NCBI GenBank assembly: GCA_002340515.1
Contig: DDMF01000117.1
Coordinates: 8,088-32,087, forward strand
DNA from: Rhodobacteraceae bacterium UBA2553
Lineage (GTDB): Bacteria > Pseudomonadota > Alphaproteobacteria > Rhodobacterales > Rhodobacteraceae
Direction: 5' to 3'
Length of the DNA: 24,000 nt
Shown here: in pieces, positions 3,552 through 20,776 of the stretch
Layout: each line of letters opens with the position of its first letter
Position numbering within the stretch: the stretch's first letter is position 1
The notes under the pieces: generated by a model
What the model saw: only the letters and a program-made list of their open reading frames with translations
Told to the model about the DNA's origin: nothing
Databases searched by the model: none
Made by a program: the position numbers and the translations under genes

Positions 3552-3932
3552 GTGCATTCCAATTCCAGCGTTTTGAACACTCCTGAACTTGAAAGCCCGC
3601 CAAGCAAACCGCTTTGCTTTCATGTGGTGTCTGATCGTGCTGACATCCCGAAAATCGTTGATCTTGCCCGCGAGGCCCATGCGGAAAGCCGGTTTGGCTA
3701 TATTCCGTTTAGCGCTGACAAAGTGCGCAAGATTGCGGAGCAGGCGATTGCGGATGAGAAACGCCATGCGGTGATGTTGGCCGAGAAAAATGACGTCCCG
3801 GTTGGCTTCGCCTATTGCTCGGTTGCGGAGTATCATATCGGGACGGATGTGTTGCTGACCACCATTCACAACATCAACGTGTCGCGCGACGTGCGTATGC
3901 TGGCTTCTGCATTAGCTTTTGAAGTATCCTGA
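3552..3932 (+). pseudogene. GNAT-family N-acetyltransferase, 3'-truncated remnant
   Basis: The N-terminal GNAT-like portion (VMLAEKNDVPVGFAYCSVAEYHIGTDVLLTTIHNINV) is present. The acetyl-CoA motif (R/Q-x-x-G-x-G/A) and the C-terminal half are absent. The ORF ends in an unrelated tail (MLASALAFEVS*) where GC drops. Confidence 0.6.
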
Positions 3933-3969
3933 GCAGGATACTCTGCGAACCAAAAGGAGAGTAGTTACA

Positions 3970-4527: not shown

Positions 4528-4538
4528 GGAAAATAATA

Positions 4539-7500
4539 ATGGGAACAAGCGTTGTATTTTCGTCTGATGGCACTGCAAAAGTCGTAATCGATTCAACATT
4601 TGGAAAAGAAGGGGTAATGGGCAATGATGCTGTCAGAGAGCGTGCCGCCGAATACAATTCGATTGTTGAGCGTGCCCGGGAAGACCCGACGAATACTTCG
4701 CTTCAAGCCGAGCTCGCCAAGGAAAAAGTTTTCTTAGAGGCGGTAGTGGCTGCGGTCAAAGGCCCGCACGGTTTTGGTGCGGCTTTGGCCAGTGCACGTA
4801 GTGGGGAAATGGCTGCAATAGCGATTGATGAGCTGGAAGGCTATGCAGAAGAGGCTAATCTCACAGACATACAAACTGCTAAATTGGTAAACGACCTACT
4901 AGCTTACGCGCAACAAACTGGCAAGGGTTTGAACCCTGAAACATTGGGCGATTTTTTAAATGAAACCTCAACTCCTGAGGTTGAAATTTTAAATGGTTTG
5001 GGGGGCAACACTTCTTCTTCTGGTAATGATGGCGGTAGTGACAACGACGGTTCGGGTTGGGACCCAACGCCCAATGATACAACCCCTGGTCTCGGAACGG
5101 GTGGTGACAATGATAGTGATGGAAATGGGCACGAAGACTCGGATAATGACAATGATACTGGCGGCGGCACCTATCCAACCTATGACCCTGATGCGGATAA
5201 TCCGGGGTCTAGTGGGACGGATGCCGATAGTGGTGGAAGCGGTCTAGAAGACGCCCATAATGACGGGGTTGGGTCTGGGAACCTGATGCCGATTATTCTC
5301 GATATGGATGGTGATGGGATCGAGATCACGGTTGATGGCAATGTCAGCTTTGATGTGGATGGTGACGGCTTTCTCGAGCAAACGGCTTGGGTTCACAAAG
5401 ACGATGCATTTTTGGTGCTTGACCTGAATGCCGATGGTACGCGTGGGGCGGGTGACGGCAAGATCGACCAAACTGCCGAACTTGTGCTGACAGAATGGGT
5501 GAACGAAGAGGGCGCGACGGATCTGCAAGCGCTTGCCTCTTTTGACAAATTGACGCGCGGTGGGAACAATGATGGAATTCTGGATCATCGCGATAGCATC
5601 TGGTCTGAACTACGTGTTTGGCAGGACAGCAACTCCAACGGTGTGACTGATGCGGGTGAGTTAAAAACGCTGTCTGAGCTTGGGTTTGAGCAAATTAACC
5701 TAACCTATGATGATGGCACGCATTTTGCGGACACGACAAATGACGTCACGATTTTTAACAGCTCTCTGCTCGGCACCGCCTCCTATGTGCGCAATGGCCA
5801 GACTGTCACAGGTGGTGTTGGCGATGTTGCGCTGGCTTACGGGGCGGACGGGTGGAAAAAGGTAGCAACGTCTGCTGGCCACAATATCGCTTGGGAAAGT
5901 GGGATGGTGTGGAAGTTTCTTGAGCTTTCCAAATTTGCATCCTCAAACACGACAATTTCTGACGGAACCTATCATGGCGTATTCGGTGACACGCGCAACA
6001 ATGTGATTAATACTCGGTTTGCTACCAACGAACTGATCATTGATGGTGGTGCTGGGAATGACTACGTGGAGGCCTCTGGCCAGAACGATATCATTTTGGG
6101 CGGCACTGGCAATGACACATTATATGGCCTCGAAGGGAATGATACCCTTGATGGCGGCAGCGGTGCCAATCGGCTCTACGGTGGCTGGGGGGATGATCGT
6201 TATGTGATCAGCTCGCTGGCAGGAAGTTCCTGGATTTCACGCGGAGCAGAGCACAATGCGGATGGGCATGATGCGGTTACGTTCTCGCAACTTAACGCGT
6301 CTGAGGTGAATATTACAAAAAGGTCGGATGCCGATAACGGCGGCGGTGCAAATGGCACCTCACTGCGTTTTTATTGGAACAAGGGCGGCGCGGCAGGATC
6401 ACTTGAGGTTGCAGACGAAGGCTTGGATATCGAGCAGTATGTATTTGCTGACGGCCTGACTGCTAACAATTTCATCGTTGGGGATAGCGCTGGCCGATCA
6501 CATGACGGTACAGACAAGTTCGATCTTATTGATGCAAAAGAAGGGTCTGACACAGTCAACGGTCACGTAGGCAATGATATCCTGTTTGGACGAGGCGGAA
6601 ATGATGTGTTGTCTGGTGGTGCTGGCGACGACGCTTTGTACGGTGGGAATGGCAATGACACGCTTAACGGGGGGGCAGGCCGGGATTTGCTATCAGGTGG
6701 AACAGGCGACGATACCATTTACTTTGCCAATGGAGACAAGTTTTGGGATGCCGTTGGAAAAGCCAGAGATGTCGGCGGAGCAGGCCACGACACGCTCACC
6801 GTTGCAAATGGTTCATATTTTGCCACGACTGGCTTGAGTGCGTATGGTTTTGAGCGTTTCATTGGTGCTGATGGAAATGACCGTGTCAAAGGCGGCCTGT
6901 CCAGTGTCAACTACTATTTGTATGGTGGCTTAGGCGACGATACGCTCACCGGTCATGGCGGCAATGACACGCTACATGGTATGGACGGCGCTGATCATCT
7001 CCACGGTGGAAACGGGAACGACTATATTTCCGGTGGGGACCAAGCTGATTACGTTGAGGCTGGGGCCGGGAACGATACTCTTTTTGGCGGAGATGACCGG
7101 GATACGATCTATGCTGATGCTGGCGATGACACAGTATCGGCTGGCGCGGGGAATGACCTTGTGATCGGCGGAACAGGTGCTGATGTTCTGTCTGGTGGCA
7201 GTGGCACGGACTATCTGAGCTACTATCACAGCGCCCATGGCGTGGTAATTTACCTCGCCCATAACACCGCCTCTGGGGGAGACGCGCAAGGTGATAAGAT
7301 TGATGGTTTTGAAGGTGTTTCAGGATCAAATCATGCCGCTGATGAACTGTATGGGACCTCTTATGCCAATATCATTCGTGGCAATGGTGGGAAGGATACG
7401 ATTTATGGCTATTCCGGCGATGATGACATCAATGGCGGTTCAGGCAATGACCTGATTGTGGGCGGTATTGGTGCTGATACCCTTGTGGGTGGCAGCGGAT

Positions 7501-9416
7501 GGGACTTTCTTAGCTACTACCATAGCTCCCAAGGCGTAAATATTAACCTTTCCAAAAATATCTCCTCGGGAGGCGAAGCTCAGGGCGATGTGGTCAGTGG
7601 CTTTGAGGGCGTTTCAGGATCAAACACAGCAGCTGACACACTTATCGGCTCTGCGCATGATAACGCGATAAAAGGAAACGGCGGGAACGACAAACTTTAT
7701 GGCGGCGCTGGTGGCGATACCATCCATGGCGGAGCAGGAAACGATCTGATTGTCGGAGACCTCAGCGCCTCATTTGACGAAACAGGCTCTGATATCGTTC
7801 TGACATCGGAGGTTTGGATTTCATCTGGATCTTGGGGCTTTTGGGACAGTCAGGAATGGATGGCCGGAGATTTTGATGGGAATGGAGCGGATGACATACT
7901 TGCCTCCTACGCGGTGGGCGATGGGACGACGCTCAGATTTTACGCATCAGATGGCTCCTCTTTTGCCACACCAACGGCTTGGGCCAGCGGAGGCTGGGGA
8001 TTCTATACATCAGCTGAGTGGGACATCGGGGATTTCAACGGAGATGGTCGGGATGACGTTATTTCTGTTTACAAAAACAGTTCTGATGGCAGCTCGACGC
8101 TAAGGGTTTATACGTCCAACGGTAGCGGCTTTGATGCGCCGTCAGCATGGAGCGTGGGACAATGGGGGCATTATGATAGCGCCCAATGGATGACCGGGGA
8201 CTTCAACAATGATGGCCTTGAAGATGTTGCGGCAACCTATGCCAATTCTGCTGAAGGCGGCACCATCCTGCGCGTCTATTATTCCAACGGAACCGGGTTT
8301 GATGCCCCAACAGGACACAAAGTCAATTGGGGTCATTGGAGCAGCCAGAAATGGATGGCTGGCGATATCAATGGCGACGGACAAGACGATATCATAGCCG
8401 CTTACGAAGGCCACGAAGGGCGTACGGTTCTAAGGGTCTATGAAGCAACAGAGAATGGGTTTTCGGACCCGTCCAACTGGGCAAGTGGTTTTAACTTTAC
8501 GTTTGATGCTGATGCCGAATGGAAGATAGGGGATTTTAACGGCGACGGTGGTGCGGATATTGCGGTGATTTCTGGAAATGGCGACAATAAAACCATCCGA
8601 GTCATCTTGGCCGATGATGGTAAATTCCTGGCCCCCGTAACGGTTTCAGCCGAAAGTGATTTTAGCTATTTGATCGGTCAGGACTGGACAACAGGGGACT
8701 TTAACGCAGACACCCTTAACGATGTTGCTGTGTCAACGCAGGGCACCAATGGCGAAACTGAGATTTCGGTTTACGAGTCTCATTCCCGTGACGATGAGTT
8801 GTTTGGTGGTGAGGGACATGACACCCTTAACGGTGGTGAAGGCAACGACACCATCGAAGGGGGCGACGGCAATGATGTCGTTACAGGCGGCACGGGGTCA
8901 GATGTCCTATCCGGCGGTGCAGGCACGGATTATTTGAGCTACTATCACAGTCAAGAAGCTGTCCAAGTTCATTTGGCGTCCAACATTGCTACAAATGGGG
9001 ATGCCCAAGGCGACACCATCAGTAGCTTTGAGGGGGTGTCAGGCTCAAATCATGGCGATGACCACCTTCAAGGCACATCCTACGCCAATACAATCAGCGG
9101 AAATGGCGGCAATGATACGATTTTCGGATATTCTGGAAATGACGTTATTATCGGTGGTGTTGGCAATGACTTGCTGAGCGGCGGGAATGGCTCAGATACG
9201 TTTGTCTTTGGACAGGGTGATGGAAGTGACCGGATCTCTGATTTTCAGGTCGCAGAAGATCACATTCGCTTCACCTCTCAAGGCATCAACTATGCGGACC
9301 TGTCGATCACGCAAACCACAGCGGGCGCTCTCATCACATATGATGGCAGCAACACCATTGAGCTTGCAGGCGTAAGTGCCAGTGATATCAGTCAGGATCA
9401 GTTTATCTTTGCTTGA
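4539..9416 (+). CDS. Giant RTX (hemolysin-type calcium-binding) protein with embedded FG-GAP-like repeat array; probable T1SS substrate
   Basis: Dozens of GGxGxDxL/I nonapeptides (e.g. GGAGNDYVEASGQNDIILGGTGNDTLYGLEGNDTLDGG). A D/G/N/S low-complexity tract is encoded at ~5001-5275. Six ~50-aa W-x-x-GDFNGDGxDD...LRVY...G-F repeats are encoded at ~7811-8790. The C-terminus is RTX-like (DTFVFGQGDGSDRISDF...DQFIFA). Confidence 0.9.
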   Translation: MGTSVVFSSDGTAKVVIDSTFGKEGVMGNDAVRERAAEYNSIVERAREDPTNTSLQAELAKEKVFLEAVVAAVKGPHGFGAALASARSGEMAAIAIDELEGYAEEANLTDIQTAKLVNDLLAYAQQTGKGLNPETLGDFLNETSTPEVEILNGLGGNTSSSGNDGGSDNDGSGWDPTPNDTTPGLGTGGDNDSDGNGHEDSDNDNDTGGGTYPTYDPDADNPGSSGTDADSGGSGLEDAHNDGVGSGNLMPIILDMDGDGIEITVDGNVSFDVDGDGFLEQTAWVHKDDAFLVLDLNADGTRGAGDGKIDQTAELVLTEWVNEEGATDLQALASFDKLTRGGNNDGILDHRDSIWSELRVWQDSNSNGVTDAGELKTLSELGFEQINLTYDDGTHFADTTNDVTIFNSSLLGTASYVRNGQTVTGGVGDVALAYGADGWKKVATSAGHNIAWESGMVWKFLELSKFASSNTTISDGTYHGVFGDTRNNVINTRFATNELIIDGGAGNDYVEASGQNDIILGGTGNDTLYGLEGNDTLDGGSGANRLYGGWGDDRYVISSLAGSSWISRGAEHNADGHDAVTFSQLNASEVNITKRSDADNGGGANGTSLRFYWNKGGAAGSLEVADEGLDIEQYVFADGLTANNFIVGDSAGRSHDGTDKFDLIDAKEGSDTVNGHVGNDILFGRGGNDVLSGGAGDDALYGGNGNDTLNGGAGRDLLSGGTGDDTIYFANGDKFWDAVGKARDVGGAGHDTLTVANGSYFATTGLSAYGFERFIGADGNDRVKGGLSSVNYYLYGGLGDDTLTGHGGNDTLHGMDGADHLHGGNGNDYISGGDQADYVEAGAGNDTLFGGDDRDTIYADAGDDTVSAGAGNDLVIGGTGADVLSGGSGTDYLSYYHSAHGVVIYLAHNTASGGDAQGDKIDGFEGVSGSNHAADELYGTSYANIIRGNGGKDTIYGYSGDDDINGGSGNDLIVGGIGADTLVGGSGWDFLSYYHSSQGVNINLSKNISSGGEAQGDVVSGFEGVSGSNTAADTLIGSAHDNAIKGNGGNDKLYGGAGGDTIHGGAGNDLIVGDLSASFDETGSDIVLTSEVWISSGSWGFWDSQEWMAGDFDGNGADDILASYAVGDGTTLRFYASDGSSFATPTAWASGGWGFYTSAEWDIGDFNGDGRDDVISVYKNSSDGSSTLRVYTSNGSGFDAPSAWSVGQWGHYDSAQWMTGDFNNDGLEDVAATYANSAEGGTILRVYYSNGTGFDAPTGHKVNWGHWSSQKWMAGDINGDGQDDIIAAYEGHEGRTVLRVYEATENGFSDPSNWASGFNFTFDADAEWKIGDFNGDGGADIAVISGNGDNKTIRVILADDGKFLAPVTVSAESDFSYLIGQDWTTGDFNADTLNDVAVSTQGTNGETEISVYESHSRDDELFGGEGHDTLNGGEGNDTIEGGDGNDVVTGGTGSDVLSGGAGTDYLSYYHSQEAVQVHLASNIATNGDAQGDTISSFEGVSGSNHGDDHLQGTSYANTISGNGGNDTIFGYSGNDVIIGGVGNDLLSGGNGSDTFVFGQGDGSDRISDFQVAEDHIRFTSQGINYADLSITQTTAGALITYDGSNTIELAGVSASDISQDQFIFA
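7167..7754 (+). repeat. Tandem duplication of a 294-nt (98-aa) module inside the RTX gene
   Basis: GGTGADVLSGGSGTDYLSYYHSAHGVVIYL...GFEGVSGSNHAADELYG... (aa 877-974) is followed directly by GGIGADTLVGGSGWDFLSYYHSSQGVNINL...GFEGVSGSNTAADTLIG... (aa 975-1072). Confidence 0.8.
8886..9179 (+). repeat. Third copy of the 98-aa RTX module, downstream of the FG-GAP array
   Basis: GGTGSDVLSGGAGTDYLSYYHSQEAVQVHL...SFEGVSGSNHGDDHLQGTSYANTISGNGGNDTIFGYSGND aligns colinearly with the copies at 7167-7754. Confidence 0.75.
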
Positions 9417-9438
9417 TGGTATCTGAGCTCCATTTTGC

Positions 9439-9465
9439 CCGCTCAGAGATTCCAGATCTGAGCGG
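9439..9465. terminator. Hairpin between convergent genes (non-canonical terminator candidate)
   Basis: CCGCTCAGA-GATTCCAGA-TCTGAGCGG gives a 9-bp stem. There is no U-run on either strand. Confidence 0.3.
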
Positions 9466-9566
9466 CAATGCCTTCAAGCGTTAGGCTCGTGTGAAGTGTG
9501 AGCCATATAGTGCTAGGGGTGTGCAACTGGGTCGGATATTGCCAATGCTTGGGAGAGAGCGAAGTT

Positions 9567-10145
9567 CTAATCCCACATGCGTTTTGCAATACTTCGTTCC
9601 TCAGGTCCAAGCGCCTGTGAGTAGATCGCGGTTGTTTCCATCCGCGAATGGCCCAGCCAGCGTTGGATGAGATGCAAGGGGACACCGCTGGTGACGGCAT
9701 GAACGGCGAAGCTGTGGCGCAACCCGCGTGGGGTGGCTTGCGGGCCGGATATGTTGGCCTCACGCATCACGGATTTTACGACGGTCCATGCTTGCGTGCG
9801 CGCCCACGGAAATCTGGGGCCATTGGCAAGCTCAATAAGCAATGATTTTGGCACCGGCACCTGTCGATAAATCTGCTGACTTCTTTTCTTCAGTGTACGG
9901 AACACAACTACACCTTCATCGGGGGAGATATTTGCAGGTTGAAGTGCCAAAACTTCCGACAAACGCCCTCCAGTCCAGAGGAGTGTCAGGCATAACAGCC
10001 GTTCTTCGCGCCTTCGGTTTTCTGCGACTTTCAAGAACCGTTTCCGTTCAGATGCAGATAGGTATTTTCGGTGACCTGATGAAGTGAATAACGACGGGGC
10101 AGGTATCACAGAACACCTTCCCAACGGCTGATGTAAAGCGCCCAA
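9567..10145 (-). CDS. Short tyrosine recombinase (catalytic domain only)
   Basis: Catalytic motifs are TGGRLSEVLAL (Arg), PRGLRHSFAVH (H-x-x-R), WLGHSRMETTAIY (His and Tyr). The track start is TTG. A GTG at 10109 with GGAAGG upstream is an alternative start. Confidence 0.8.
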   Translation of the reverse strand: MGALHQPLGRCSVIPAPSLFTSSGHRKYLSASERKRFLKVAENRRREERLLCLTLLWTGGRLSEVLALQPANISPDEGVVVFRTLKKRSQQIYRQVPVPKSLLIELANGPRFPWARTQAWTVVKSVMREANISGPQATPRGLRHSFAVHAVTSGVPLHLIQRWLGHSRMETTAIYSQALGPEERSIAKRMWD

Positions 10146-10373
10146 GAGACCAGAACTTTCATGTTGATTGATCTGCGATTTTCAACCGAACAAAATTGCC
10201 CATTCTGTTCAGTGAAGAAAAATATCTTTGGTTTTCAAAGATATGGGCGTCAATGCAGCAACGCCTATCGGAATCCTACATGAAGAGAGTCACGCGGTTC
10301 AATCGTAAAATCAACTATTTGCCCATGGGTGAACAGTTTGGGCAATTCTGTTCGATCTTACAGGAGTAATCCG

Positions 10374-10835
10374 ATGCGCAAAATAGGGTGGATCATGGGG
10401 CTTTTGCTCATGTCTGGCTGCGTCACAACCGAACTGCAATATAAAACTGGGGTCACACCACAACAGCGCAATCGCGATGTTGCGGCCTGTGAACGTCAAG
10501 CTAAACGACAGGCCCCGGTGAGCAATAAATATGAGGTGGTGCCGCGTCGTTGGGTGCCGGGTGTGCGTCATTGCAATAGCAAAGGATGCTATTCGCGTGG
10601 GGGATATTGGACGGGCGGTAATGTGATTGCGACCGATCAGAACAAGACGACCCGCTCACACACATATGGGCGCTGTATGGCCAACAAAGGCTATCAGCCC
10701 ATCGCCACAACAGGATGCGCGGGTAAGATCCGTGAATCGGTCATGCGATCCTCTCAGGGGCGCTATCCACGCCTGACAGCAGAGAGCTGCACGGTTGGTA
10801 TGGCGGACGGCACACTCAAGGTTCACACTCCGTAA
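10374..10835 (+). CDS. Lipoprotein, unknown function
   Basis: AGGAG lies 8 nt upstream of the ATG. The signal MRKIGWIMGLLLMSGC carries a lipobox (LMSG/C). Confidence 0.7.
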   Translation: MRKIGWIMGLLLMSGCVTTELQYKTGVTPQQRNRDVAACERQAKRQAPVSNKYEVVPRRWVPGVRHCNSKGCYSRGGYWTGGNVIATDQNKTTRSHTYGRCMANKGYQPIATTGCAGKIRESVMRSSQGRYPRLTAESCTVGMADGTLKVHTP

Positions 10836-10850
10836 ATTGACAACGACAAG

Positions 10851-10881
10851 AGCGCCCTGAACGACGGGGCGCTTTCTTCTT
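10851..10881 (+). terminator. Rho-independent terminator
   Basis: AGCGCCC-loop-GGGCGCT followed by TTCTTCTTC, just after the lipoprotein stop. Confidence 0.6.
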
Positions 10882-10926
10882 CATCAAACAGAACGGTAAG
10901 TTCTGCACGCATTTCAGGAGTTCATT

Positions 10927-11169
10927 ATGCGTATCATAAGTGGGTTTTTCACAATCGGGATCGGTTGTCTTGTCATGATGTTTGGGATCGTGCTGGGGTT
11001 CACAATCATTGGATTGCTCTGGGCGTTTCCTGTGGCGATTTCGGGTTACGGTCTCATGCTCAAGGGCTTTGCCGATATTGGCATTGGGACATATCAGGCT
11101 GTTAAGAACACGGGCAGCGGGCAGGGCAAAAATGACAGCTCAACCCCGAAACAGTATCGAGATCTGTAG
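10927..11169 (+). CDS. Small membrane protein (2 predicted TM segments)
   Basis: CAGGAG lies upstream of the ATG. Hydrophobic stretches FFTIGIGCLVMMFGIVLGFTIIGLLWAFPVAISGYGLML. A GCACGA-TCA-TCGTGC hairpin follows at 11179-11193. Confidence 0.6.
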   Translation: MRIISGFFTIGIGCLVMMFGIVLGFTIIGLLWAFPVAISGYGLMLKGFADIGIGTYQAVKNTGSGQGKNDSSTPKQYRDL

Positions 11170-11178
11170 TCTTTTCCT

Positions 11179-11984
11179 GCACGATCATCGTGCGCGGGTT
11201 CCAAACCCCTTTGGAACCTTGCCACGTGGCGAACGCGGGGGAAACAAGGACATGGGCGGGGCGGAGATTATTTTGCCTCGCGAGGAATGTCGCCTGAATG
11301 AAAATTCAGGTGGCAGGGGACAATAATCTTTGGCACGGGCGCTTGCGCTTCTACCCCTTGGCCGCGCGAGGGGCAGCGCCCCTGAGGCTGCACAACTGTG
11401 TTGTGAGTGCGGGAACCGCACTTGGGGAGGAGCGTTCGCTCCGTGGGGTATCCCCGATGGTCGCAGACCATAAACGGCAACGCCACGAGTGGCAGAGCCG
11501 TCACTACATTAAAGTAGTGACGGCGCGCGCTTGACCACAGTCACCGCCATCTCTGAATGAAAGTGACAAGTGATGGGCAAGTGACGCCATATACCCACAT
11601 CATTTTTGATCATTTCGTGGCTGGATAAATTGCCTTTGTTTAGAATGAACCTCTTCACGGAAAGGACTGATTTATCGCTCCTTTCCTGAGACATCATCAC
11701 CATTTCACAAGGAGAAACTTCATGATCACTGATCATCTTAAGCCGCCCTGATGGCGGCGTTAGCGACACACTCTGACAAGATGTCAGACCTCGTCACATC
11801 ATCATTGTGGCACAACCTCTGAAATCCCGCCTCCGGGCGTATTTCTGCCCATTGGGGCAACAGACAGGAGCGCCAAGGGCGCTCGCCCGTCTGGGTCAAT
11901 TCCCGCATTGCGGACCGTCCAGCCTGAGGGCTGCCGGTTGACCAACAACACTTAGCAAACTGAAAACAATAGAAAGAAAAGGGG
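11179..11984 (+). other. About 0.8 kb noncoding, GC-rich, hairpin-dense region upstream of the recombinase gene (candidate att/oriT/regulatory RNA region)
   Basis: No credible ORF. Perfect stems at 11197-11218 (9 bp), 11293-11310 (7 bp, GAAA loop), 11369-11383, 11406-11422, 11457-11471, 11498-11523 (10 bp), 11742-11758, 11772-11788 and 11868-11884. AAGTGAY occurs three times, at 11561, 11568 and 11579. Confidence 0.55.
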
Positions 11985-12872
11985 ATGGATAATCTCTCAA
12001 TGGATTTGGTGCGTCTCACCAAGCGTAACCGTGATGGCTCTTTTGGCACGCAAAAGAACCGTCAGCGGGGATTAACGGCCATTGCGGCGGAACTAAAACA
12101 ACTTGGTTACACGTTGAAAACAGCGCGATCCGTGAAGCCTAAACATATCAATGCATTGGTGGATCATTGGCGTGATAGCGGGCTGAGCAAAGCGACAATG
12201 CGGAATAGAATGAGCTGGCTGCGGTGGTGGGCGCAGAAGGTGAACAAGGTGTCGATCCTGCACAAAGATAACGCCTGTTATGAGTTGAATGATGAGAGAA
12301 CCGAACGCAACAACATTGCGTTCAATCTGCACTCCGATCAATTGGATGCTCTAACAGATCGACATGTGCAGGCGGCGGTGATGCTGCAAGCCGCCTTTGG
12401 GCTGCGCCGGGAAGAGGCGATGAAAATCATCCCGAAGGAAACCATTCGAAAGGACTGCATCAAGCTCAAAGGGAGCTGGACCAAAGGTGGACGTCCACGC
12501 ACCGTGCCGATCACGTCGCAACATCAGCGCATTGTATTGTCAGCGGTCGCACAAGTCGCGAAACATGGCAGTTTGATCCCTGAAGATCGCAACTATGTGC
12601 AACATATGCGGGTCTATGAGCGGCAGGTTCAAAAGGCAGGTATCACCCGTGCGCATGGTCTTCGTCATAAATATGCACAGACCCGATATGAAAAACTCAC
12701 CGGCATGAAATGTCCCATCAACGGGGGGCCGGGGCGATCTTTGATGTCGGATGAGCAATATGAATTGGACCGTCAGGCGCGGGCGCGGATCTCAAAAGAA
12801 CTTGGCCACAACAGAATTGAGATTGTTGACGTCTACATTGGTCGGCTTTTGCAAGCGGGGGGATTGTCATGA
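11985..12872 (+). CDS. Tyrosine recombinase (resembles the Phage_int_SAM_2/Integrase_1 type, from memory)
   Basis: Catalytic motifs are FGLRREEAMKI (Arg), AHGLRHKYAQ (H-x-x-R), LGHNRIEIVDVYIG (His and Tyr). GGGG lies upstream of the ATG. Confidence 0.8.
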   Translation: MDNLSMDLVRLTKRNRDGSFGTQKNRQRGLTAIAAELKQLGYTLKTARSVKPKHINALVDHWRDSGLSKATMRNRMSWLRWWAQKVNKVSILHKDNACYELNDERTERNNIAFNLHSDQLDALTDRHVQAAVMLQAAFGLRREEAMKIIPKETIRKDCIKLKGSWTKGGRPRTVPITSQHQRIVLSAVAQVAKHGSLIPEDRNYVQHMRVYERQVQKAGITRAHGLRHKYAQTRYEKLTGMKCPINGGPGRSLMSDEQYELDRQARARISKELGHNRIEIVDVYIGRLLQAGGLS

Positions 12873-12979: not shown

Positions 12980-13077
12980 AGCATAGGTTACATCCATTGG
13001 TGGTGTTTGATATGAATTTGCCACCCTAGGGCTTTCCCCGGGGCATCGCGATGCTCCTCAACATGAGGAGTATTGTG

Positions 13078-13278
13078 ATGAAAATGTTGAGCAAACGGCA
13101 GGTGACGGAGAGGGTTTTGTACTCACCGCAGCACATCGCGCGTCTGGAAGCGGCAGGCAAATTCCCATTGCGGGTAAAGCTGGGCGGCAACCGCGTGGGG
13201 TGGGTGGAAAGTGAAGTGCAGGACTGGCTTCAACAACGCATCGACGCCAGAGATCAACACTCAGCCTCTCTTGTTTGA
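13078..13278 (+). CDS. alpA: AlpA-family excisionase/transcriptional regulator
   Basis: GAGGAG lies 7 nt upstream of ATG 13078. LSKRQVTERVLYSPQHIARLEAAGKFPLRVKLGGNRVGWVESEVQDWL matches the AlpA/MerR-like winged-helix pattern. Confidence 0.8.
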   Translation: MKMLSKRQVTERVLYSPQHIARLEAAGKFPLRVKLGGNRVGWVESEVQDWLQQRIDARDQHSASLV

Positions 13279-13285
13279 GAGCGGG

Positions 13286-13318
13286 AGGATCGCCAGTAAT
13301 GGCGGTCCTTCTCTTTAC
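13286..13318 (+). terminator. Terminator-like hairpin after alpA
   Basis: AGGATCGCC-AGTAAT-GGCGGTCCT (one G-U pair) followed by TCTCTTT. Confidence 0.45.
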
Positions 13319-13470
13319 ATAGGATTGACTTATATTTTTGGATGAACAGCACAGTTGTAACAACTCCTTGCACAGAAGCTTAAATTGGGAATACGGTAAT
13401 GCGCGAGTGTATTCAATTTAAGATGGATGTGCTACACAGCTTTACTCATTTCTAGGAAGCTCTTTTTATA

Positions 13471-14448
13471 ATGCCTGAAGACAGCTCTACTGAAACAAAA
13501 ACAAATGAAAACCCAAAAGCTCTTGGGAAAGATAGCGTGAGTGCCAAAGTTAAATCGGCGGCTGACATATTTAAGTCAGTTGGCGTGTTTCTTGCTTTTG
13601 GTTGGGCTTTGATATCTTTTGTGGCAATACTTTTTTGGGAGGCTAGAGGTGAGCCTTGGCTAACGGAAAGAATTAAAATTCAACTAGAGGAGGCTGAGCA
13701 TGAGGATTGGTTTCGGCAACAAGTACTTTTAGCTTTGTCAGATAACCGAATCTCACTTGCTCGCCAGATTGAACAAGAACATACAGGTAAGCCCATAGTT
13801 GAGAGCTTTCAAAGGAAAATCCGATCGGAAGATATGGAGGTATTGTTTTCGGAAAAGAAATTTCAGGATGTTTTCCTGCGTGAAATATTGTTATCCATAT
13901 CTGGTCGAGATAACTTGAGCGTTGATAAGGTACTGGCTTCCTACAAAAGCCGAGATTTTTTAGAAGTTTGGTCGAACCCTCCAGCGATATCTGCTCTAGC
14001 GGGAACCGTGACTGAGCAAGTCGATGCGCTGTATACTTTTGAGCTATTCTTTACACGAGAGGCGCGTTGGGAAAATGGGCGACCTGTTCGAGATGCCGAT
14101 GGTTTGCAAGAGTTCGAAACACGTCGGCAAGTAGCTGATCGTTTTTATGCGACGTCAGATCAACGAATTTCAATCGAGGTTGATCCTAATTTGACTGGAA
14201 GGTTTCGCGAGGCATTCAATTCGGGTGCCTCTCAGTTATATCTTGAAATTGGCTCAACTTACCGAGTGCCAATTCCGCGAAATGGCTTAGTGGAAGAAGT
14301 AACGTGCGTAATCAGGGAACAGCTTAGAGGAAAACCTTCAGGATTTGTTTCAATTCGAGCTATTACAAGCAGCGGTGACATCCCAGAAGGAGGGTATGAA
14401 CTTGATGTTATTATCACAGCCCGCAAGGGAGGATACAAATGCAGCTAA
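13471..14448 (+). CDS. Hypothetical membrane-anchored protein (N-terminal TM, large extracytoplasmic domain), cargo gene A
   Basis: 325-aa ORF in low-GC DNA with a single TM segment (VGVFLAFGWALISFVAILFW). I recognise no family. Confidence 0.65.
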   Translation: MPEDSSTETKTNENPKALGKDSVSAKVKSAADIFKSVGVFLAFGWALISFVAILFWEARGEPWLTERIKIQLEEAEHEDWFRQQVLLALSDNRISLARQIEQEHTGKPIVESFQRKIRSEDMEVLFSEKKFQDVFLREILLSISGRDNLSVDKVLASYKSRDFLEVWSNPPAISALAGTVTEQVDALYTFELFFTREARWENGRPVRDADGLQEFETRRQVADRFYATSDQRISIEVDPNLTGRFREAFNSGASQLYLEIGSTYRVPIPRNGLVEEVTCVIREQLRGKPSGFVSIRAITSSGDIPEGGYELDVIITARKGGYKCS

Positions 14449-15551
14449 CAAAATATGTTTGTATTTTTTGCCTAACACTCCTTCCTGCAAAGGCTATTGG
14501 AGACCGATGGGAACTTTTACCGCAAACAGAGAATTTTTGGATTAAAAGCAATGCTCACTATGAAGCAGATACCCAAAAGCGGAGTTTTTTCTATGACGCA
14601 TTTCGTTTTGACAGAATTGAGTATTCTTATGAGCTTCTCCATATGGATGAGTTACTGCAAGATTCTTACCCAGAAATTACAAGTGACTTTGTTGTTTACA
14701 ATGAAGAAAGCGATACTTCCCGTATAGTGCGCCCAAGCATGAAAGAAGCGTGGAATTATTTGTCCAACGATGAAACGATTGTTGCTCTGGTCCCTTTTGG
14801 TTTTTCTGAAGTGGCAGGCGAACCAAGCTTAGTAGGGTTTCGTAAGCAGGGAGGAGTGATTGTTAGTGGCGTCTATTCAGCGCCAAATCTAGATACCATA
14901 TTTTGCTTGGATGATGAAGATGAACATAACCGACGAGAGGACAAAGGGTTGTCAAAATATCGAGGACAAATCCCTGTGCTCTTCCCAATAGTGTTTTCTT
15001 CACGTGTTAATTATCAGTATCTAGATGATTTTGAAGACATTCACTTAGGAACAAGCTATGATTCTGATCGATTCCAAGAAACATTTGAATCATGTCCAGA
15101 TATGATTCAGATTGGATATCGCATTATTTCACCGCGAGATATTGATGTTGATGACGATTCAGATGGACGTATCTCTCATGGGAAAAGCTCCTTAGATAAA
15201 CTTCAATCGTTTGATCGTGTTGTTATGTCATATGACCGGTTCGGATATTTGAATTTTGTTAGAAGTAGGTCACCATCACATGTCCATGATTTTGGGCATC
15301 TGTTAAGTTCAAGTGCCTACTATGATGATCAAAAATGTAAGTATCGAGAAAATGGAAGCTATCCGAAAAGGTCGTTGAGTTGCGAGTTGTGGGCTGTAAG
15401 TGTTTCAGCGTTTGATGGCGCAGCTGTATTTTTACGAACACCGGGAAGTAACCAGCCAATTGTTTGGGGTGATGAGACGAGAACAAGTCCTGCGGTGCTT
15501 GTCGTTCGAGAACGAATGCCAAAGGTTACATTGCCCCTTTACTCTGACTAA
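14439..15551 (+). CDS. Hypothetical secreted protein, cargo gene B
   Basis: GGAGGA lies 6 nt upstream of the ATG. The start overlaps the gene A stop by 10 nt (ATGCAGCTAA). Signal-peptide-like MQLTKYVCIFCLTLLPAKA. I recognise no family. Confidence 0.65.
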   Translation: MQLTKYVCIFCLTLLPAKAIGDRWELLPQTENFWIKSNAHYEADTQKRSFFYDAFRFDRIEYSYELLHMDELLQDSYPEITSDFVVYNEESDTSRIVRPSMKEAWNYLSNDETIVALVPFGFSEVAGEPSLVGFRKQGGVIVSGVYSAPNLDTIFCLDDEDEHNRREDKGLSKYRGQIPVLFPIVFSSRVNYQYLDDFEDIHLGTSYDSDRFQETFESCPDMIQIGYRIISPRDIDVDDDSDGRISHGKSSLDKLQSFDRVVMSYDRFGYLNFVRSRSPSHVHDFGHLLSSSAYYDDQKCKYRENGSYPKRSLSCELWAVSVSAFDGAAVFLRTPGSNQPIVWGDETRTSPAVLVVRERMPKVTLPLYSD

Positions 15552-15600
15552 TAATGCAGAGGAGGATTTCAGATACTCCCGAACGAGCTAAGTGTGGCGT

Positions 15601-16572
15601 CTATTTTAGAATGACCGACCTTTGCTCAGGATTGTCGGGGAACACCCGCCCATTTTTCATACATTGGAAAATGTGATCGAAAACCAAGCCTGATTGACTG
15701 CTATCGTTCCCATGACGGAAGTAGTTGTGCCCTTTAGGCATATCATACTGAGTATTGATATCGTCACAATCAACTTGGAATACATTGCGTAGTGTCAGCT
15801 TAATGTTCTCAGGTCCCGTATGCCCTAACCGACGGGAAGCAATCTTGTTTTTCAGATTTGCAGCCTTGCTGGCTCTTAGCGCCAGATCGTCTGATGCGTA
15901 GTAGACTACAACATTGCGTGAAGCGTGAGCAATTAATTCACCAGTTTGACCTTCATGCAATGTTTCATTGACTACATCTGCTGCAACCATAAATGTATTG
16001 CGAAAGATTAGTGGTACACCTGAAGCTAGGTCGTATTGGTTCCAACTTCCTAGAGTTTGCCTGAGAACCCTGTTGCCCATGGAATGAGCTAATAGATTTA
16101 TACGTTTCAGGCACGGAGTAGATTCTGGTTCATTGGCGTCCGCATTTCTCCAAGCTAGGAATTTCTCTAACACGCGGGCAAATGAGTAGCCGCTTTGGTC
16201 TGCTGATTTCTGATCGTCCCAATAATCATCAACAATCCCTAAGTCGTTGTCGCAGGGCCAAATTAAAGGAACGACTAAAACCTCATTTCTTTCCTTCTTG
16301 TCACATAATTCTTGTAAATCAGAAGCCATTTCAAATACTTGAGTCGGTAAGTTGTTAAAGCCGTGCACAAATAACAAAATTTGCTTGCTCTGACATTCTT
16401 TCAAACGCTTTAAAAATTCCAGACTGCCAATTTCTGTATGATCCTCATTGCTTCCTTTTTCACAAAAGAAAACAGAATTACTTGGAGCGTTATTCTTCAA
16501 GTCGAAATTGAACTTACGCCCATTACGGGTACGAATGCTTTGTTTGGGAAATCGGTTGGTAACAAACAGCAT
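15601..16572 (-). CDS. Alpha/beta hydrolase, DUF900-like (Ser-Asp-His esterase/lipase fold), cargo gene C
   Basis: Start MLFVTNR with GGAGA upstream. Contains ILLFVHGFNN (oxyanion HG), LLAHSMGNRV (GxSxG nucleophile elbow), VVYYASDDLAL (Asp) and PKGHNYF (His). No signal peptide. Confidence 0.75.
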   Translation of the reverse strand: MLFVTNRFPKQSIRTRNGRKFNFDLKNNAPSNSVFFCEKGSNEDHTEIGSLEFLKRLKECQSKQILLFVHGFNNLPTQVFEMASDLQELCDKKERNEVLVVPLIWPCDNDLGIVDDYWDDQKSADQSGYSFARVLEKFLAWRNADANEPESTPCLKRINLLAHSMGNRVLRQTLGSWNQYDLASGVPLIFRNTFMVAADVVNETLHEGQTGELIAHASRNVVVYYASDDLALRASKAANLKNKIASRRLGHTGPENIKLTLRNVFQVDCDDINTQYDMPKGHNYFRHGNDSSQSGLVFDHIFQCMKNGRVFPDNPEQRSVILK

Positions 16573-16789
16573 AATATTTCTCCAAAATATGCAAAGGAAA
16601 ACACTCAAAATTTCCACCTAGAATAGTGCTGACTGTGGAAAATGTCATCAAAAAATCTGAATATGAGAGTGTCCAGAGGGGGATATCCATGGGGATACGG
16701 TATCCCTGAGGTAACCTATAGGTGGTGTTCAGGCATGTTTCCTTATGGGGTAGTGTGAGCAGCAGATAAACGCATTGATTGAGTCGTGA

Positions 16790-16806
16790 ATCACGGATGC
16801 CGTGAT
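16790..16806. promoter_or_regulatory. Palindrome upstream of the mobilization operon (operator candidate)
   Basis: ATCACGG-ATG-CCGTGAT, 22 nt upstream of ATG 16828. Confidence 0.3.
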
Positions 16807-16827
16807 ATTTTTGTTGGGAATTGTCTT

Positions 16828-17376
16828 ATGAAACTTGCTTTGAAGAGAGAGCAGTCCTCTGGGTCTGTGATGAGTTTGGTGCCTTTACGGATTGGGAGCG
16901 GGGTGGTGTTTAAGCTTAATGCCAGTTTGGAGCTGGATGAGGCTGAGCAGAAGCTTTTGGATAAGTACAATCTTTCTCGTGTGCCGTTGGTGACGGGCGA
17001 CTTTATTGCCGATCTGCGCAAGGGGTTTCGCCAAGCAATTGTGTTGGGGATCTTGAGCTTTGTGGCGGTTTGGTTCTTGGGCGCAGCCAATTTGGCTGTG
17101 TCCGTTGCCATGATTGTCACCATGGTGATGACGGTGATCTATTACCGCCATGAACGCGAACAGATTAACGTCAATGATCTGCTGGCCTTCGGCAGAATGT
17201 TCAAATGCGATAGCGTTGTGGCGCTGATCGAAAAAGAAGCTGCGATCACCAATATGGCCAGCTATCTGCGCCAAGTTTTGGAGAGCGCCAAATACTGGGA
17301 TGACCGGGAAGTCATCGACATTGAACCATTAGATCGTGAGCTTTTGAAACAGGCGATCCTGACCACCCGAACCTAG
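16828..17376 (+). CDS. Two-TM membrane protein, first gene of the mobilization operon
   Basis: Hydrophobic hairpin AIVLGILSFVAVWFLGAANLAVSVAMIVTMVMTVIYY. The stop is 7 nt before the next gene. The start is uncertain (GTG 16786 or ATG 16828). Confidence 0.6.
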   Translation: MKLALKREQSSGSVMSLVPLRIGSGVVFKLNASLELDEAEQKLLDKYNLSRVPLVTGDFIADLRKGFRQAIVLGILSFVAVWFLGAANLAVSVAMIVTMVMTVIYYRHEREQINVNDLLAFGRMFKCDSVVALIEKEAAITNMASYLRQVLESAKYWDDREVIDIEPLDRELLKQAILTTRT

Positions 17377-17383
17377 GGGGTAA

Positions 17384-19555
17384 GTGGTGGATAAGCGCTT
17401 TAAACTCGCCGTTGATCTGGGCCGTTTTGTCGGTGGCGGTTTTGCTTCCGCTTACAAAGGCTGGGGTGTTCGTGAGGGGATCTCGCGAGATCTTCGCCAG
17501 GGAATTGCCGATGCAAGGTTCTCTAAAGAACATGAAGCGGCTTTTGAGCTGGGCAAGCAGGTTCGCGCGCAACAGATTGCGGTGGGGATTAAAACGGACG
17601 ATGATCTCTGCGGTTGGGCTGTGCGGGTGGTGGATGCAGCCCTTAAGCTTAATGGTTGGGAGGGTGCTGCCTCGCCGTTCCGCGATCATCTGATCACCTT
17701 CATGGCAGACATGTGCGGTTATGAAGGGTGGCAGAGTATTCCGCCTCTTCCTGATCCCTCATCGCCGCAATCTGAGCTGTGGGCGTGGGAAGACAAGGCA
17801 CGCCAAATCGGGGCTTACTGCGCGGATCATGACAACGCCTCGATCCTGACTGTGCGTTATCTGGCGTCACTGATTGCGCCTTTGGTCAAAGCCTGCCCAA
17901 ACCTGATTGAACCGACTGACATGCAAGGTTCAGATCTCGCCTTTTCTGCCAATCTATCTGACATGATTGATGATATGCCTGCGCTGGTAGAACGGATAAT
18001 CCAGACGACATACGCGCCTGATCTGGAACCGCTTAAGATCTGTCACAACCTGCGCGACCATCTGCACAAGAGCACACTCATTGCCTCAGGGGGATTGCCC
18101 GGCAAAGCTAGCCGGGAACGGCAGCTTAAACTGCCTACCAAAAACAGATCGGTTGAGGCGTCTGAATGCGCGCGGGTCTATCTTGGCGGCACGCCGTTGC
18201 AGAAGCTGCTCAATCATCCGGTGCCGGTGTCTTTGCCCACAGCCACCCGATTTGAGCATATGCACATCGTGGCGGGCAGCGGTCATGGCAAAACCCAAAC
18301 GCTGCAAAGCCTGATCCTGCGGGATCTTGAGGCGGTGGCAAGCGGCGGTGCATCCATCGTGGTCATGGACAGCCAAAGTGATCTGATCAACACCATCGCG
18401 GGGCTTGATATCTTTGCGCCGGGGCAACCTCTAGCAGATCGTTTGGTGCTGATTGATCCAACAGATCTTGAATGGCCGGTTGCACTTAACCTCTTTGATG
18501 CGGGGTTAGAACGGCTAAATCAATATGCGCCCTTGGATCGCGAACGGCTGACCAATTCTATTTTAGAGCTGTATGATTTTGTGCTGGGGTCTTTGCTGGA
18601 TGCGGGCATGACGCAAAAGCAAAATGTGATCTTCCGCTATATCACCCGTTTGTTGCTGCATATTCCGGGGGCGACCATTCATACGCTGCGTGAGCTTTTA
18701 GAAGATGGTGGCGGCGACAAATACCAACCCTACATCAATCAGCTTGAAGGGTCAGCGCGGGCGTTTTTTGAAACGGAGTTCAACGGCAAAGAGTTTGTTG
18801 CCACCAAGCGCCAAGTGGTACGCCGTCTTTATGGGATTTTAGAAAACCAAACGATGGAGCGGATGTTCAGCCATCCCAAAAGCAAGCTGGATCTCTTTGC
18901 TGAGATGAATGCAGGTAAAGTGATCTTGATCAACACCGCCAAAGATCTGCTCAAAGAACAGGGAACTGAAATCTTTGGCCGCTTCTTCATTGCCCTCATT
19001 GCGCAGGCCGCACAGGAACGCGCTGTCCTGCCAAAGGAAGAGCGCACACCAACCTTTGTGTATGTGGATGAAGCCAGCGATTACTTTGACAAGAACGTCG
19101 GGATCATCCTGTCCCAAGCCCGTAAGTACAATGTCGGCATGGTGTTGGCGCATCAGTTTATGGGCCAGCTCGAACCCAGATTACAGGAAGCGATATCCGC
19201 CAATACAGCCATCAAATTTGCAGGTGGCGTGTCCGCCAAAGACGCCCGTGCGCTGGCCAATGATCTGCGCAGTGATGCGACATTCATTACTGAGCAAGCC
19301 AAGCTCAACTTCGCAGCTTTCATCAAAGGGCAAACCAAGCGGGCAATATCAATCAGCATTGCGCCGGGACAAATGGAAAGCTGCCCGCGTATGAGCAGTG
19401 AGGATCGGGCCACCCTGCAAGATGACATGCGTGCAAAATATGCGGTGCATCACTCAAAGCTGCGAGAAGATCCAAAAGGCGATGCCGAAGACGTGCAAGA
19501 CGAAGATCAATCAGAATGGCCGCAGGATGATGGCGCACCGATGCCATGGACTTAG
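17384..19555 (+). CDS. TraD/VirD4/TcpA-like P-loop ATPase (type IV coupling protein-like) lacking N-terminal TM segments
   Basis: Walker A HIVAGSGHGKTQ and Walker B TFVYVDEASDYF, then ARKYNVGMVLAHQFMGQL. The region between the Walker boxes is long and looks helical. GTG start with TAGGGGG upstream. Confidence 0.75.
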   Translation: MVDKRFKLAVDLGRFVGGGFASAYKGWGVREGISRDLRQGIADARFSKEHEAAFELGKQVRAQQIAVGIKTDDDLCGWAVRVVDAALKLNGWEGAASPFRDHLITFMADMCGYEGWQSIPPLPDPSSPQSELWAWEDKARQIGAYCADHDNASILTVRYLASLIAPLVKACPNLIEPTDMQGSDLAFSANLSDMIDDMPALVERIIQTTYAPDLEPLKICHNLRDHLHKSTLIASGGLPGKASRERQLKLPTKNRSVEASECARVYLGGTPLQKLLNHPVPVSLPTATRFEHMHIVAGSGHGKTQTLQSLILRDLEAVASGGASIVVMDSQSDLINTIAGLDIFAPGQPLADRLVLIDPTDLEWPVALNLFDAGLERLNQYAPLDRERLTNSILELYDFVLGSLLDAGMTQKQNVIFRYITRLLLHIPGATIHTLRELLEDGGGDKYQPYINQLEGSARAFFETEFNGKEFVATKRQVVRRLYGILENQTMERMFSHPKSKLDLFAEMNAGKVILINTAKDLLKEQGTEIFGRFFIALIAQAAQERAVLPKEERTPTFVYVDEASDYFDKNVGIILSQARKYNVGMVLAHQFMGQLEPRLQEAISANTAIKFAGGVSAKDARALANDLRSDATFITEQAKLNFAAFIKGQTKRAISISIAPGQMESCPRMSSEDRATLQDDMRAKYAVHHSKLREDPKGDAEDVQDEDQSEWPQDDGAPMPWT

Positions 19556-20334
19556 AGGCGGACAAGCTTGGGCGGCGGAACCGATTTAAACGCACACCGC
19601 GTGGCAAGCGGCTTAGCCTTACGCCCCGCGATCAAGAGATATTACGTTGGCTTTATCGCTATCGATATCTGCGCCAAGATCACCTGATGCGCATCCTCGC
19701 ACCAAGATCTGAAAAGCGCTTCAAAGAACGGCTGGGGGATCTGTTCCACGAAACGGGCCTGATCAATCGTCCCCTGATCCAAGCACCGCTCTTTGATGCC
19801 CGCGCCACGCCCATGCTCTATGAACTGAGCACCAAAGGGGCAGGGTATTTAGAAGCGCTGAATACTCTGCCATACCGTGCGGTCACCTTCTCCCGTCGCC
19901 AGAAAGAAGCTTACAGCCCACAGTTCCTGCACACGATGATGATCATTGAAGCGGTTCTTGAGGTGGAGCTGTCAGCGCAAGCCACAGATGGGCAAAGATT
20001 CGTATCGGTAGATGAGGTTCTATCCCGCGCCCCTGAAACAACCCAACACGCCAAGAATCCCTTGGCCGTGCCAATCAATCTCGATGGGCGTAACACCTAC
20101 ATTATCCCTGATGCACTCTACGGCGTTGAATCTGAACATGATGGCAAAAAGGTCTATCGCTTCTTTGCGCTAGAATGTGAACGCACCAGCCCCGTGTCAC
20201 GATCTAACAGCTTTGCTTCCAGTACCGCCCAAAAGGAAAAAGCATACGCAGCGCTGATTAAAGGCGGTGGGTTCAACAAACACTGGGGTATTCCAAATCT
20301 GGAACTGAACCTCATCCCCCGAAAAGGTCAGTGA
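19546..20334 (+). CDS. Replication-relaxation (Replic_Relax) family protein
   Basis: LTPRDQEILRWLYRYRYLRQDHLMRIL...LYELSTKGAGYLE...HTMMIIEAVLEVEL...IIPDALYGVE...FFALECERTS follows the Replic_Relax pattern. The start overlaps the ATPase stop by 10 nt. Confidence 0.75.
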   Translation: MDLEADKLGRRNRFKRTPRGKRLSLTPRDQEILRWLYRYRYLRQDHLMRILAPRSEKRFKERLGDLFHETGLINRPLIQAPLFDARATPMLYELSTKGAGYLEALNTLPYRAVTFSRRQKEAYSPQFLHTMMIIEAVLEVELSAQATDGQRFVSVDEVLSRAPETTQHAKNPLAVPINLDGRNTYIIPDALYGVESEHDGKKVYRFFALECERTSPVSRSNSFASSTAQKEKAYAALIKGGGFNKHWGIPNLELNLIPRKGQ

Positions 20335-20364
20335 CAGACCTTTTCCAGCGGTCTGCACCTTTTG
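20335..20364 (+). terminator. Terminator-like hairpin after the mobilization operon
   Basis: CAGACC-TTTTCCAGC-GGTCTG followed by CACCTTTTG. Confidence 0.45.
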
Positions 20365-20415
20365 AAATGCTCATAGATGAACATAGAAAATCACCTATGA
20401 ACCAACCGATTTATG

Positions 20416-20450
20416 AGACTAAAAAGAGACTAAACTCCCGCCGGGAGTTT
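20416..20450 (-). terminator. Terminator downstream of tRNA-Cys
   Basis: On the minus strand, AAACTCCCG-G-CGGGAGTTT is followed by AGTCTCTTTTTAGTCTC. It lies ~30 nt after the tRNA 3' end. Confidence 0.5.
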
Positions 20451-20480
20451 GTTCTATTCTTCTAAGTGTATGATTTTGTT

Positions 20481-20554
20481 TGGAGGCGAGTACCGGAATC
20501 GAACCGGTGTACACGGATTTGCAATCCGCTGCGTCACCACTCCGCCAACTCGCC
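20481..20554 (-). tRNA. tRNA-Cys (anticodon GCA), CCA encoded
   Basis: The reverse complement GGCGAGTTGGCGGAGTGGTGACGCAGCGGATTGCAAATCCGTGTACACCGGTTCGATTCCGGTACTCGCCTCCA folds as a cloverleaf. The acceptor GGCGAGT pairs with ACTCGCC, the T-arm is CCGGT-TCGATTC-CCGG-like, and the anticodon loop is TTGCAAA. Confidence 0.92.
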
Positions 20555-20776
20555 ATCCGTGGTGTTGGGTTTCTCTAGCGCCATTCCTAGGGGGTTGTCC
20601 AGAGGAGATCGGGTGAGAAAACAGAAAGTTTTGGTGCAAAAGTTTTGCGATTTGTGCCTGTGCGAAATGTTTAGTAAATAGTTGCTATCATGCCGCACCT
20701 AACCCCTTGTGGGATTGCCGCAAGCGGCTATCTATGGCAAAACAAGACAAATGTTTCTGACACGATAGGCTCAACT

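Follow-up and report, generated by a model that had tools for sequence, protein, structure and literature searches.

Phosphodiester glycosidases release the sugar of a sugar-1-phosphate diester; the lysosomal 'uncovering enzyme', NAGPA, is one of them. NAGPA relies on its DGGGS motif, which is invariant and takes part in substrate binding and catalysis (PMC13474241). The function of the DUF900 family of hydrolases is unknown (PMC11878206); a secreted archaeal protein, cinquedea, whose homologues mostly carry DUF900, has been reported to be a bactericidal phospholipase (bioRxiv 10.64898/2026.06.10.730825). A protein with the predicted fold of the former group and a member of the latter are encoded next to each other in a 24,000-nucleotide stretch of contig DDMF01000117.1 from Rhodobacteraceae bacterium UBA2553 (this whole stretch is called the window below). 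They occupy, with a third gene, the variable cargo segment of a small mobilizable island:

13310-16678, no strand: variable cargo segment, 3,369 bp, 41.7% GC (guanine plus cytosine), delimited by the ends of the DNA homology to the sister element L089
13471-14448, plus strand: gene A, 325 amino acids (aa), bitopic inner-membrane protein (open reading frame and hydropathy)
14439-15551, plus strand: gene B, 370 aa, secreted protein (signal-peptide-like N-terminus; AlphaFold 2 model)
15601-16572, minus strand: gene C, 323-aa cytoplasmic DUF900 alpha/beta hydrolase (Pfam; start sites of homologues)

An initial annotation, made from the sequence alone, had proposed that A, B and C form one undescribed three-gene system. 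This is not borne out: none of 80 C-bearing genome loci has A or B, and the proposed system is an accident of adjacency. With somewhat better than even confidence, we consider that the cargo consists of two unrelated modules lying side by side: an A-B pair, in which A would be a periplasmic tether and B would act on a phosphoglycan, and C, which would be a cytoplasmic hydrolase working on its own.

The cargo slot

The slot is defined by comparison with L089, a sister element from another sample whose coupling protein is at least 90% identical. L089 aligns to positions 13028-13309 (97%) and 16679-20396 (92%) of the window, with complete mismatch in between. Since the homology stops at both edges and the difference inside is total, positions 13310-16678 are the swapped segment. 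The initial annotation had placed its cassette (13387-16706) in the cargo slot of a putative integrative mobilizable element (IME), and the flanks of L089 confirm this independently, with slightly different boundaries. The cassette is interchangeable cargo of the island.

The slot of L089 (283-9291, 9 kb) encodes, directly after alpA, the Gabija proteins GajA and GajB (PADLOC E values of 1e-245 and 1e-223, respectively), a Mokosh-like (MkoC-like) helicase of 1,165 aa and a 319-aa protein which has no match in PADLOC, NCBIfam or PHROGs. These limits give the precise slot for swappable cargo in a small, roseobacter-type mobilizable island; as the sister carries Gabija there, the slot is useful for cargo mining.

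The cargo has the lowest GC content of 413 segments of 3,369 nt taken across the 24 kb. In 100-nt bins, the mean GC is 0.418 in the cargo versus 0.525 in the island backbone (Mann-Whitney p = 1e-11); gene by gene, it is 0.44 for A, 0.41 for B and 0.42 for C, compared to 0.50-0.54 for the genes of the backbone. The low-GC anomaly described initially is therefore real, but the difference, given as 33-38% versus 58-63%, had been roughly doubled: it is 42% versus 52-55%, and 33% GC is reached only by the lowest decile of 60-nt lines.

Independence of C from A and B

The initial annotation had named the co-occurrence and synteny of the three genes in other genomes as a check, with a lack of co-occurrence among the outcomes that would refute the proposal. 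This check was run, and no co-occurrence was found in either direction. For C, 254 genome loci were confirmed, of which 80 were retrieved for neighbourhood analysis (L009-L088). The tblastn searches of these 80 loci with A, B, int, alpA, D, the type IV coupling protein (T4CP) and the relaxase of the island gave zero matches. Conversely, no C homologue lies beside any A-B locus elsewhere. The two modules are independent of each other.

The A-B pair

Hydropathy gives A a short Lys-rich cytoplasmic tail, a single hydrophobic segment at about residues 30-57 and, after it, roughly 270 exported residues. This agrees with the single N-terminal transmembrane (TM) segment and the external domain of about 270 aa predicted initially. 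In an alignment of seven sequences of the A family, C279, R282 and the penultimate residue, C324, are invariant. The 370-aa B has a signal-peptide-like N-terminus, also as annotated; in its family the Cys156-Cys219 pair is invariant and D266, Q224, G226, W318 and G344 are nearly invariant. Neither A nor B has a match in Pfam, NCBIfam, PADLOC, PHROGs or the PDB sequences, in agreement with their description as unrecognised families.

The two genes overlap by 10 nt, and a GGGAGGA Shine-Dalgarno sequence lies 6 nt before the ATG of B, inside A. The co-translation of A and B suggested initially from the overlap is therefore well founded: the overlap and the Shine-Dalgarno sequence within A indicate translational coupling. 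In every context with enough sequence, the B-family gene is preceded by a gene that overlaps it by 4-23 nt, and this preceding gene is A-like wherever the sequence can be compared; the one exception is L095, which is described below. An overlapping A-like gene and B are found together in Pseudovibrio (L001-L004), L005, L006/L007, L090, L091 and L094. An overlapping gene also precedes B on a contig of ERR4592245, where the analysis covered called genes only. A is the presumed obligate membrane partner of the B family, and the pair keeps its coupled arrangement and its invariant residues down to about 20-25% identity.

The pair is rare. A word index of 5.8 billion proteins yielded four B homologues, and 38 representatives were recovered when 1.84 billion proteins were searched exhaustively; pattern scans of JGI metagenomes and IMG/VR gave no further locus of B or of the backbone gene D. 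A-B is a rare, undescribed and self-contained pair of exported envelope proteins.

The pair mostly forms an islet of low GC. In Pseudovibrio, the GC content drops at A-B alone (0.44-0.46, versus 0.52-0.56 in the surroundings). A convergent alpha/beta hydrolase gene follows the pair there; it was considered as an echo of C and rejected, being of the proline-iminopeptidase type, with a BLASTP E value of 0.014 and native GC. The L094 pair (9199-11038) adjoins carB and has a GC content of 0.48, versus 0.72 for the genome; its A-like gene had been missed by the gene caller.

Small genes with Pfam matches to BrnA antitoxin, DUF2442 and a cell-wall hydrolase (Hydrolase_2) are located near the L094 pair. 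In L005, the A homologue (1050-2008) is split by a frameshift on a contig at 2x coverage, which makes it a pseudogene or an assembly error; the genes downstream of A-B in this locus are OlsA and OlsB, of ornithine-lipid synthesis.

Fold and proposed role of B

The initial annotation had called for AlphaFold and Foldseek analyses, which for B were run and point to a NAGPA/DUF2233-like fold. The AlphaFold model built from an alignment of 35 sequences has a pLDDT (predicted local distance difference test) of 90.5 and a pTM (predicted template-modelling score) of 0.88; it supersedes an earlier run with five sequences (pLDDT 56). When this model is compared to the PDB with Foldseek, the top 13 matches are all of the DUF2233/NAGPA type (E 1e-8 to 5e-7, probability 1.00, TM 0.40-0.62). 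The matching structures include 3ohg (the DUF2233 protein of B. ovatus), 5h3k, the vertebrate NAGPA structures 6pky, 6pku, 6u11 and 6pki, and 6ozd. BPSS2145 is also among the fold neighbours, and the viral models of BFVD that match B are phage 'phosphodiester glycosidase' and endolysin domains. The modelled fold is the first structural assignment, that of a phosphodiester-glycosidase fold lacking its motif, for a family annotated just as 'hypothetical protein'.

Three hypotheses had been put forward for the cassette as a whole. The 'envelope-modifying function' fits A-B best, because B has a phosphodiester-glycosidase fold in the model. In the mechanism that we propose, A and B would be translated as a unit. 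A would have its anchor in the inner membrane and its greater part in the periplasm, and B would be exported via its signal peptide and disulfide-bonded. The two proteins may form a complex, with A as the tether that keeps B on the periplasmic (outer) side of the inner membrane. B could then cleave or bind a phosphodiester-linked sugar of an envelope glycoconjugate such as lipopolysaccharide, capsule or a lipid-linked intermediate, and the changed cell surface could alter the recognition of the cell by phages or competitors. C would act alone in the cytoplasm, with no dedicated partner.

C belongs to a conserved DUF900 subfamily

C starts at the ATG at 16572, which is preceded by a GGAGAA Shine-Dalgarno sequence, as in all homologues, rather than as the 338-aa open reading frame (ORF) with a GTG start. 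The protein matches Pfam DUF900 (PF05990) with an E value of 2e-17 and 63.9 bits, for a cut-off of 20.5. The putative catalytic residues Ser164 (AHSMG), Asp228/229 (ASDD) and His251 (LGHTG) lie in motifs that are invariant in an alignment of 18 diverse homologues, and they agree with a G-x-S-x-G nucleophile elbow and the order Ser-Asp-His. The initial description of C as a cytoplasmic alpha/beta hydrolase with a Ser-Asp-His triad in the motifs AHSMG, ASDD and GH is thus upheld by the family match and the alignment, whereas the length of the reading frame is corrected to 323 aa. C is a new copy of a known, uncharacterised family, and is probably an esterase or a lipase acting on a conserved small-molecule or lipid substrate. 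By sequence, it has no relative in the PDB.

More than 2,000 relatives of C, at 66-83% identity, are distributed across many phyla. The C-bearing loci belong to Alpha- and Gammaproteobacteria, Desulfobacterota, Campylobacterota, Verrucomicrobiota, Planctomycetota and Acidobacteriota. The proteins of the subfamily are 323-330 aa long; in at least seven phyla, their genes have a GC content at third codon positions (GC3) anywhere between 0.28 and 0.90. About one third of the alignment columns are invariant; four Cys and six His are among them, and one more Cys is nearly so. C is under very strong purifying selection. With 66-83% identity between members as far apart as Alphaproteobacteria and the Verrucomicrobia, Planctomycetota and Acidobacteria, this DUF900 subfamily is unusually conserved.

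The GC content of C tracks that of its host (r = 0.78); C is therefore a long-term resident in most genomes. The copy in the window is a recent import. Clustering of the neighbours in the 80 genomes revealed no conserved neighbour beyond a syntenic Ruegeria clade, the nearest genes belonging to heterogeneous metabolic, regulatory and housekeeping families. No integrase or defence family is among the commonest neighbour families, and C has zero matches in phage collections and IMG/VR. Plasmid copies are few; that of Dinoroseobacter pDSHI05 lies amid metabolic genes. In PADLOC-DB v2, C gives only a chance-level match to Csx1 (E 0.022).

A distant B relative in a protease operon

In L095, a full-length B relative (hhalign 99.9%) is encoded by the last gene of a seven-gene operon (952-11206). 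The order of the genes is as follows:

1: DUF900-like hydrolase
2: protein without assignment
3: CHAT protein
4: protein without assignment
5: trypsin-like protease
6: caspase-TM protein
7: secreted B-family protein

The trypsin-like protease matches the NACHT-associated model of PADLOC (E 5e-37). The caspase-TM protein, which stands in the position of A, has 663 aa and consists of a cytoplasmic caspase domain, one TM segment and an outside domain of about 245 aa. The homology of this outside domain to A is not significant (hhalign probability below 1%); the two proteins have in common a CxxR...44 residues...C pattern near the C-terminus. The DUF900-like hydrolase is marginally related to C (hhalign probability 9%) and lies five genes from the B-family gene. 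The operon may be an undescribed trans-envelope conflict system. An insertion sequence and polysaccharide-synthesis genes are found 3' of it.

A defence or sensing role for A-B is conceivable in view of this operon and of the Gabija genes in the sister slot, each of which is a single example. We find it quite unlikely, yet worth stating, that A-B is a new, horizontally mobile two-protein envelope module, in which a periplasmic B with a motif-less NAGPA fold and its bitopic membrane partner A sense or remodel a phosphoglycan and so exclude phages or other invaders. If this were true, the caspase partner in L095 would turn the members of the B family into trans-envelope sensors to which protease effectors can be coupled.

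Weighing the explanations

Several results weigh against the reading of the cargo as a phosphoglycan-acting A-B pair next to an unrelated C. The query-normalised template-modelling scores (TM-scores) of B given by Foldseek are moderate (0.41-0.49; 0.33-0.62 when normalised by the target). The DGGGS motif occurs in none of the 35 B-family members, and the only candidate counterpart is D266-x-x-G269, in which the Asp is kept in 32 of the 35. No Pfam family, PF09992 (the phosphodiester glycosidase profile) included, is matched by any of the 35 at E <= 0.01, and the B-family profile retrieves zero PDB chains at E <= 10, so that B has no detectable sequence similarity to either. Since both the motif and profile-level similarity are absent, B is, according to the model, a new family with a phosphodiester-glycosidase fold, and its membership in PF09992 is not demonstrable; B may bind its target without catalysis, or its chemistry may differ. 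Moreover, genes of envelope-glycan metabolism do not accompany A-B in most contexts. As regards the separation of the modules, A, B and C share a similar low GC content within one slot, which is compatible with joint acquisition and possibly some functional link, and the L095 operon holds both a B-family gene and a distant DUF900-like hydrolase.

These last two observations are what would speak for a single defence or abortive-infection system, in which A and B are the envelope sensor and C the hydrolase effector. This is very unlikely, given the complete lack of co-occurrence in the 80 C loci and in the A-B loci; besides, C is convergent to A-B and not co-transcribed with it, its usual neighbours are housekeeping genes, and the hydrolase of L095 is both marginal to C and distant from the B-family gene. 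What is left of the defence idea is circumstantial and concerns A-B alone: B, in the periplasm, would sense or alter an envelope glycan, A would relay the signal or execute the response, and C would be a bystander. The Gabija and Mokosh-like genes of the sister slot, the behaviour of A-B in several genomes as a low-GC islet of horizontal origin, and the L095 relative in an operon with caspase, CHAT and a NACHT-associated trypsin-like protease are consistent with a stand-alone anti-phage or exclusion module of this sort. We nevertheless regard it as unlikely: A and B have zero matches in PADLOC, the cytoplasmic part of A is only about 30 residues long and contains no effector domain, and most A-B contexts are ordinary chromosomal neighbourhoods. 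Furthermore, a single sister element underlies the slot comparison and a single locus the L095 link, and the membrane protein of L095 is not detectably homologous to A.

The initial annotation had also considered that C could be a lipase or esterase toxin with A and/or B as periplasmic immunity proteins, by analogy with the Tle/Tli pairs of type VI secretion systems (T6SS). An intact triad in an alpha/beta hydrolase, the predicted periplasmic location of A and B, and the bactericidal activity reported for the archaeal DUF900-linked phospholipase would agree with such a pairing. It fails, however, on both co-occurrence and family, and is extremely improbable. Indeed, C stands alone in every other sampled genome and therefore needs no immunity partner; it has neither a signal peptide nor a T6SS marker domain, its only family match being DUF900, and the genes are convergent. 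None of the ORFs of the window that were scanned, several of which have no match, was recognised as a T6SS gene. A last possibility, that the cargo is at present non-functional, as hitch-hiking DNA that is decaying or neutral, is highly improbable. The atypical GC, the tiny size of the A-B family and the frameshifted A of L005 could be read in this way, but the three ORFs are intact and preceded by Shine-Dalgarno sequences, the coupling of A to B and the invariant residues have persisted over a large divergence, and the purifying selection on C is very strong. The two-module reading is the one that we prefer.

The island and its surroundings

The host island is an IME of about 9 kb with the organisation int-alpA-[cargo]-D-T4CP-relaxase, and it adjoins a tRNA-Cys gene. 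Its integrase, relaxase and coupling protein, the lack of a mating-pore apparatus and the adjoining tRNA gene are as expected of an IME. Its backbone comprises the following features:

11985-12872, plus strand: island integrase (Phage_int_SAM_2 / Integrase_1; Pfam)
13051-13278, plus strand: AlpA-family regulator, left edge of the slot (Pfam E 7e-10; 97% DNA identity to L089)
16828-17376, plus strand: gene D, 182-aa backbone protein with two TM segments, right edge of the slot (hydropathy; adjoins the T4CP gene in L089 too)
17384-19555, plus strand: VirD4/TraD-like T4CP (weak Pfam/NCBIfam matches; plasmid homologues annotated as coupling proteins of type IV secretion systems)
19546-20334, plus strand: Replic_Relax (replication-relaxation) relaxase (Pfam PF13814; same annotation on a plasmid homologue)
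20481-20554, minus strand: tRNA-Cys (GCA), whose 3' end abuts the island (ARAGORN, Rfam)

Between 10836-11990 and 20335-20700, no att direct repeat was found: the 3' end of the tRNA is not repeated, and the words in common are no longer than expected by chance. The left junction of the island should lie somewhere within 11170-11980. This stretch of about 800 bp 5' of the integrase gene has no convincing ORF, and its first half is GC-rich with palindromic stretches; no Rfam family matches the non-coding region at 11.2-11.9 kb.

Two further integrase genes are located upstream of the island: a P4-type integrase (Arm-DNA-bind_3 and Phage_integrase) at 1028-2410 on the minus strand, and a truncated integrase fragment at 9567-10145, also on the minus strand. 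The presence of these genes suggests a tandem array of islands at tRNA-Cys, reaching about 19 kb leftwards. The gene at 4539-9416 on the plus strand encodes a calcium-binding protein of 1,625 aa with RTX repeats and a segment that resembles a fucose lectin (NCBIfam RTX_toxin, E 2e-75). Besides this RTX protein, the other ORFs of the window that were scanned encode integrases, a TolC-like protein and PCMT; several have no match.

The Rfam family RF02649, 'Ruegeria trans44 sRNA', matches positions 13044-13263 on the plus strand with 113 bits (gathering score 108) and nearly coincides with the alpA ORF. This 'sRNA' family may be the alpA mRNA of islands like the one described here.

Comparison with known systems

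The resemblance of the cargo to T6SS Tle/Tli pairs is that a hydrolase gene adjoins genes for periplasmic proteins. The differences are the lack of co-occurrence, of a Tle family domain and of a recognised VgrG/PAAR context, and the convergent orientation of the genes. The closest island is L089, an IME with defence cargo, which has the same backbone, the same slot boundaries and an AT-rich, swappable cargo. Unlike the latter, the cargo of the window has no match to a PADLOC model, and C is normally found in ordinary chromosomal neighbourhoods.

C is related to DUF900 (PF05990)/COG4782 by a score well above the Pfam cut-off and by the conservation of the Ser-Asp-His motifs. It differs from the family at large in that its own subfamily is tight and cytoplasmic and keeps several Cys and His residues invariant, and from cinquedea and the rhizobial lipoprotein-like DUF900 proteins in having no signal peptide.

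In the caspase/CHAT/trypsin 'conflict' operon of L095, the B-family gene comes directly after that of a single-pass membrane protein, which mirrors the order of A and B. In contrast, the A protein of the window lacks a cytoplasmic effector domain, and the cargo contains none of the protease genes.

With PF09992 (DUF2233/NAGPA; 3ohg, 6pku/6pky), B shares the modelled fold, the extracytoplasmic location and, as predicted, disulfide bonding. On a strand-turn it carries an Asp (D266) that is nearly invariant, and some of its Arg and Glu residues are conserved. Whereas the proteins of PF09992 have a fused stalk or a cell-wall-binding domain, B has a dedicated and translationally coupled membrane partner.

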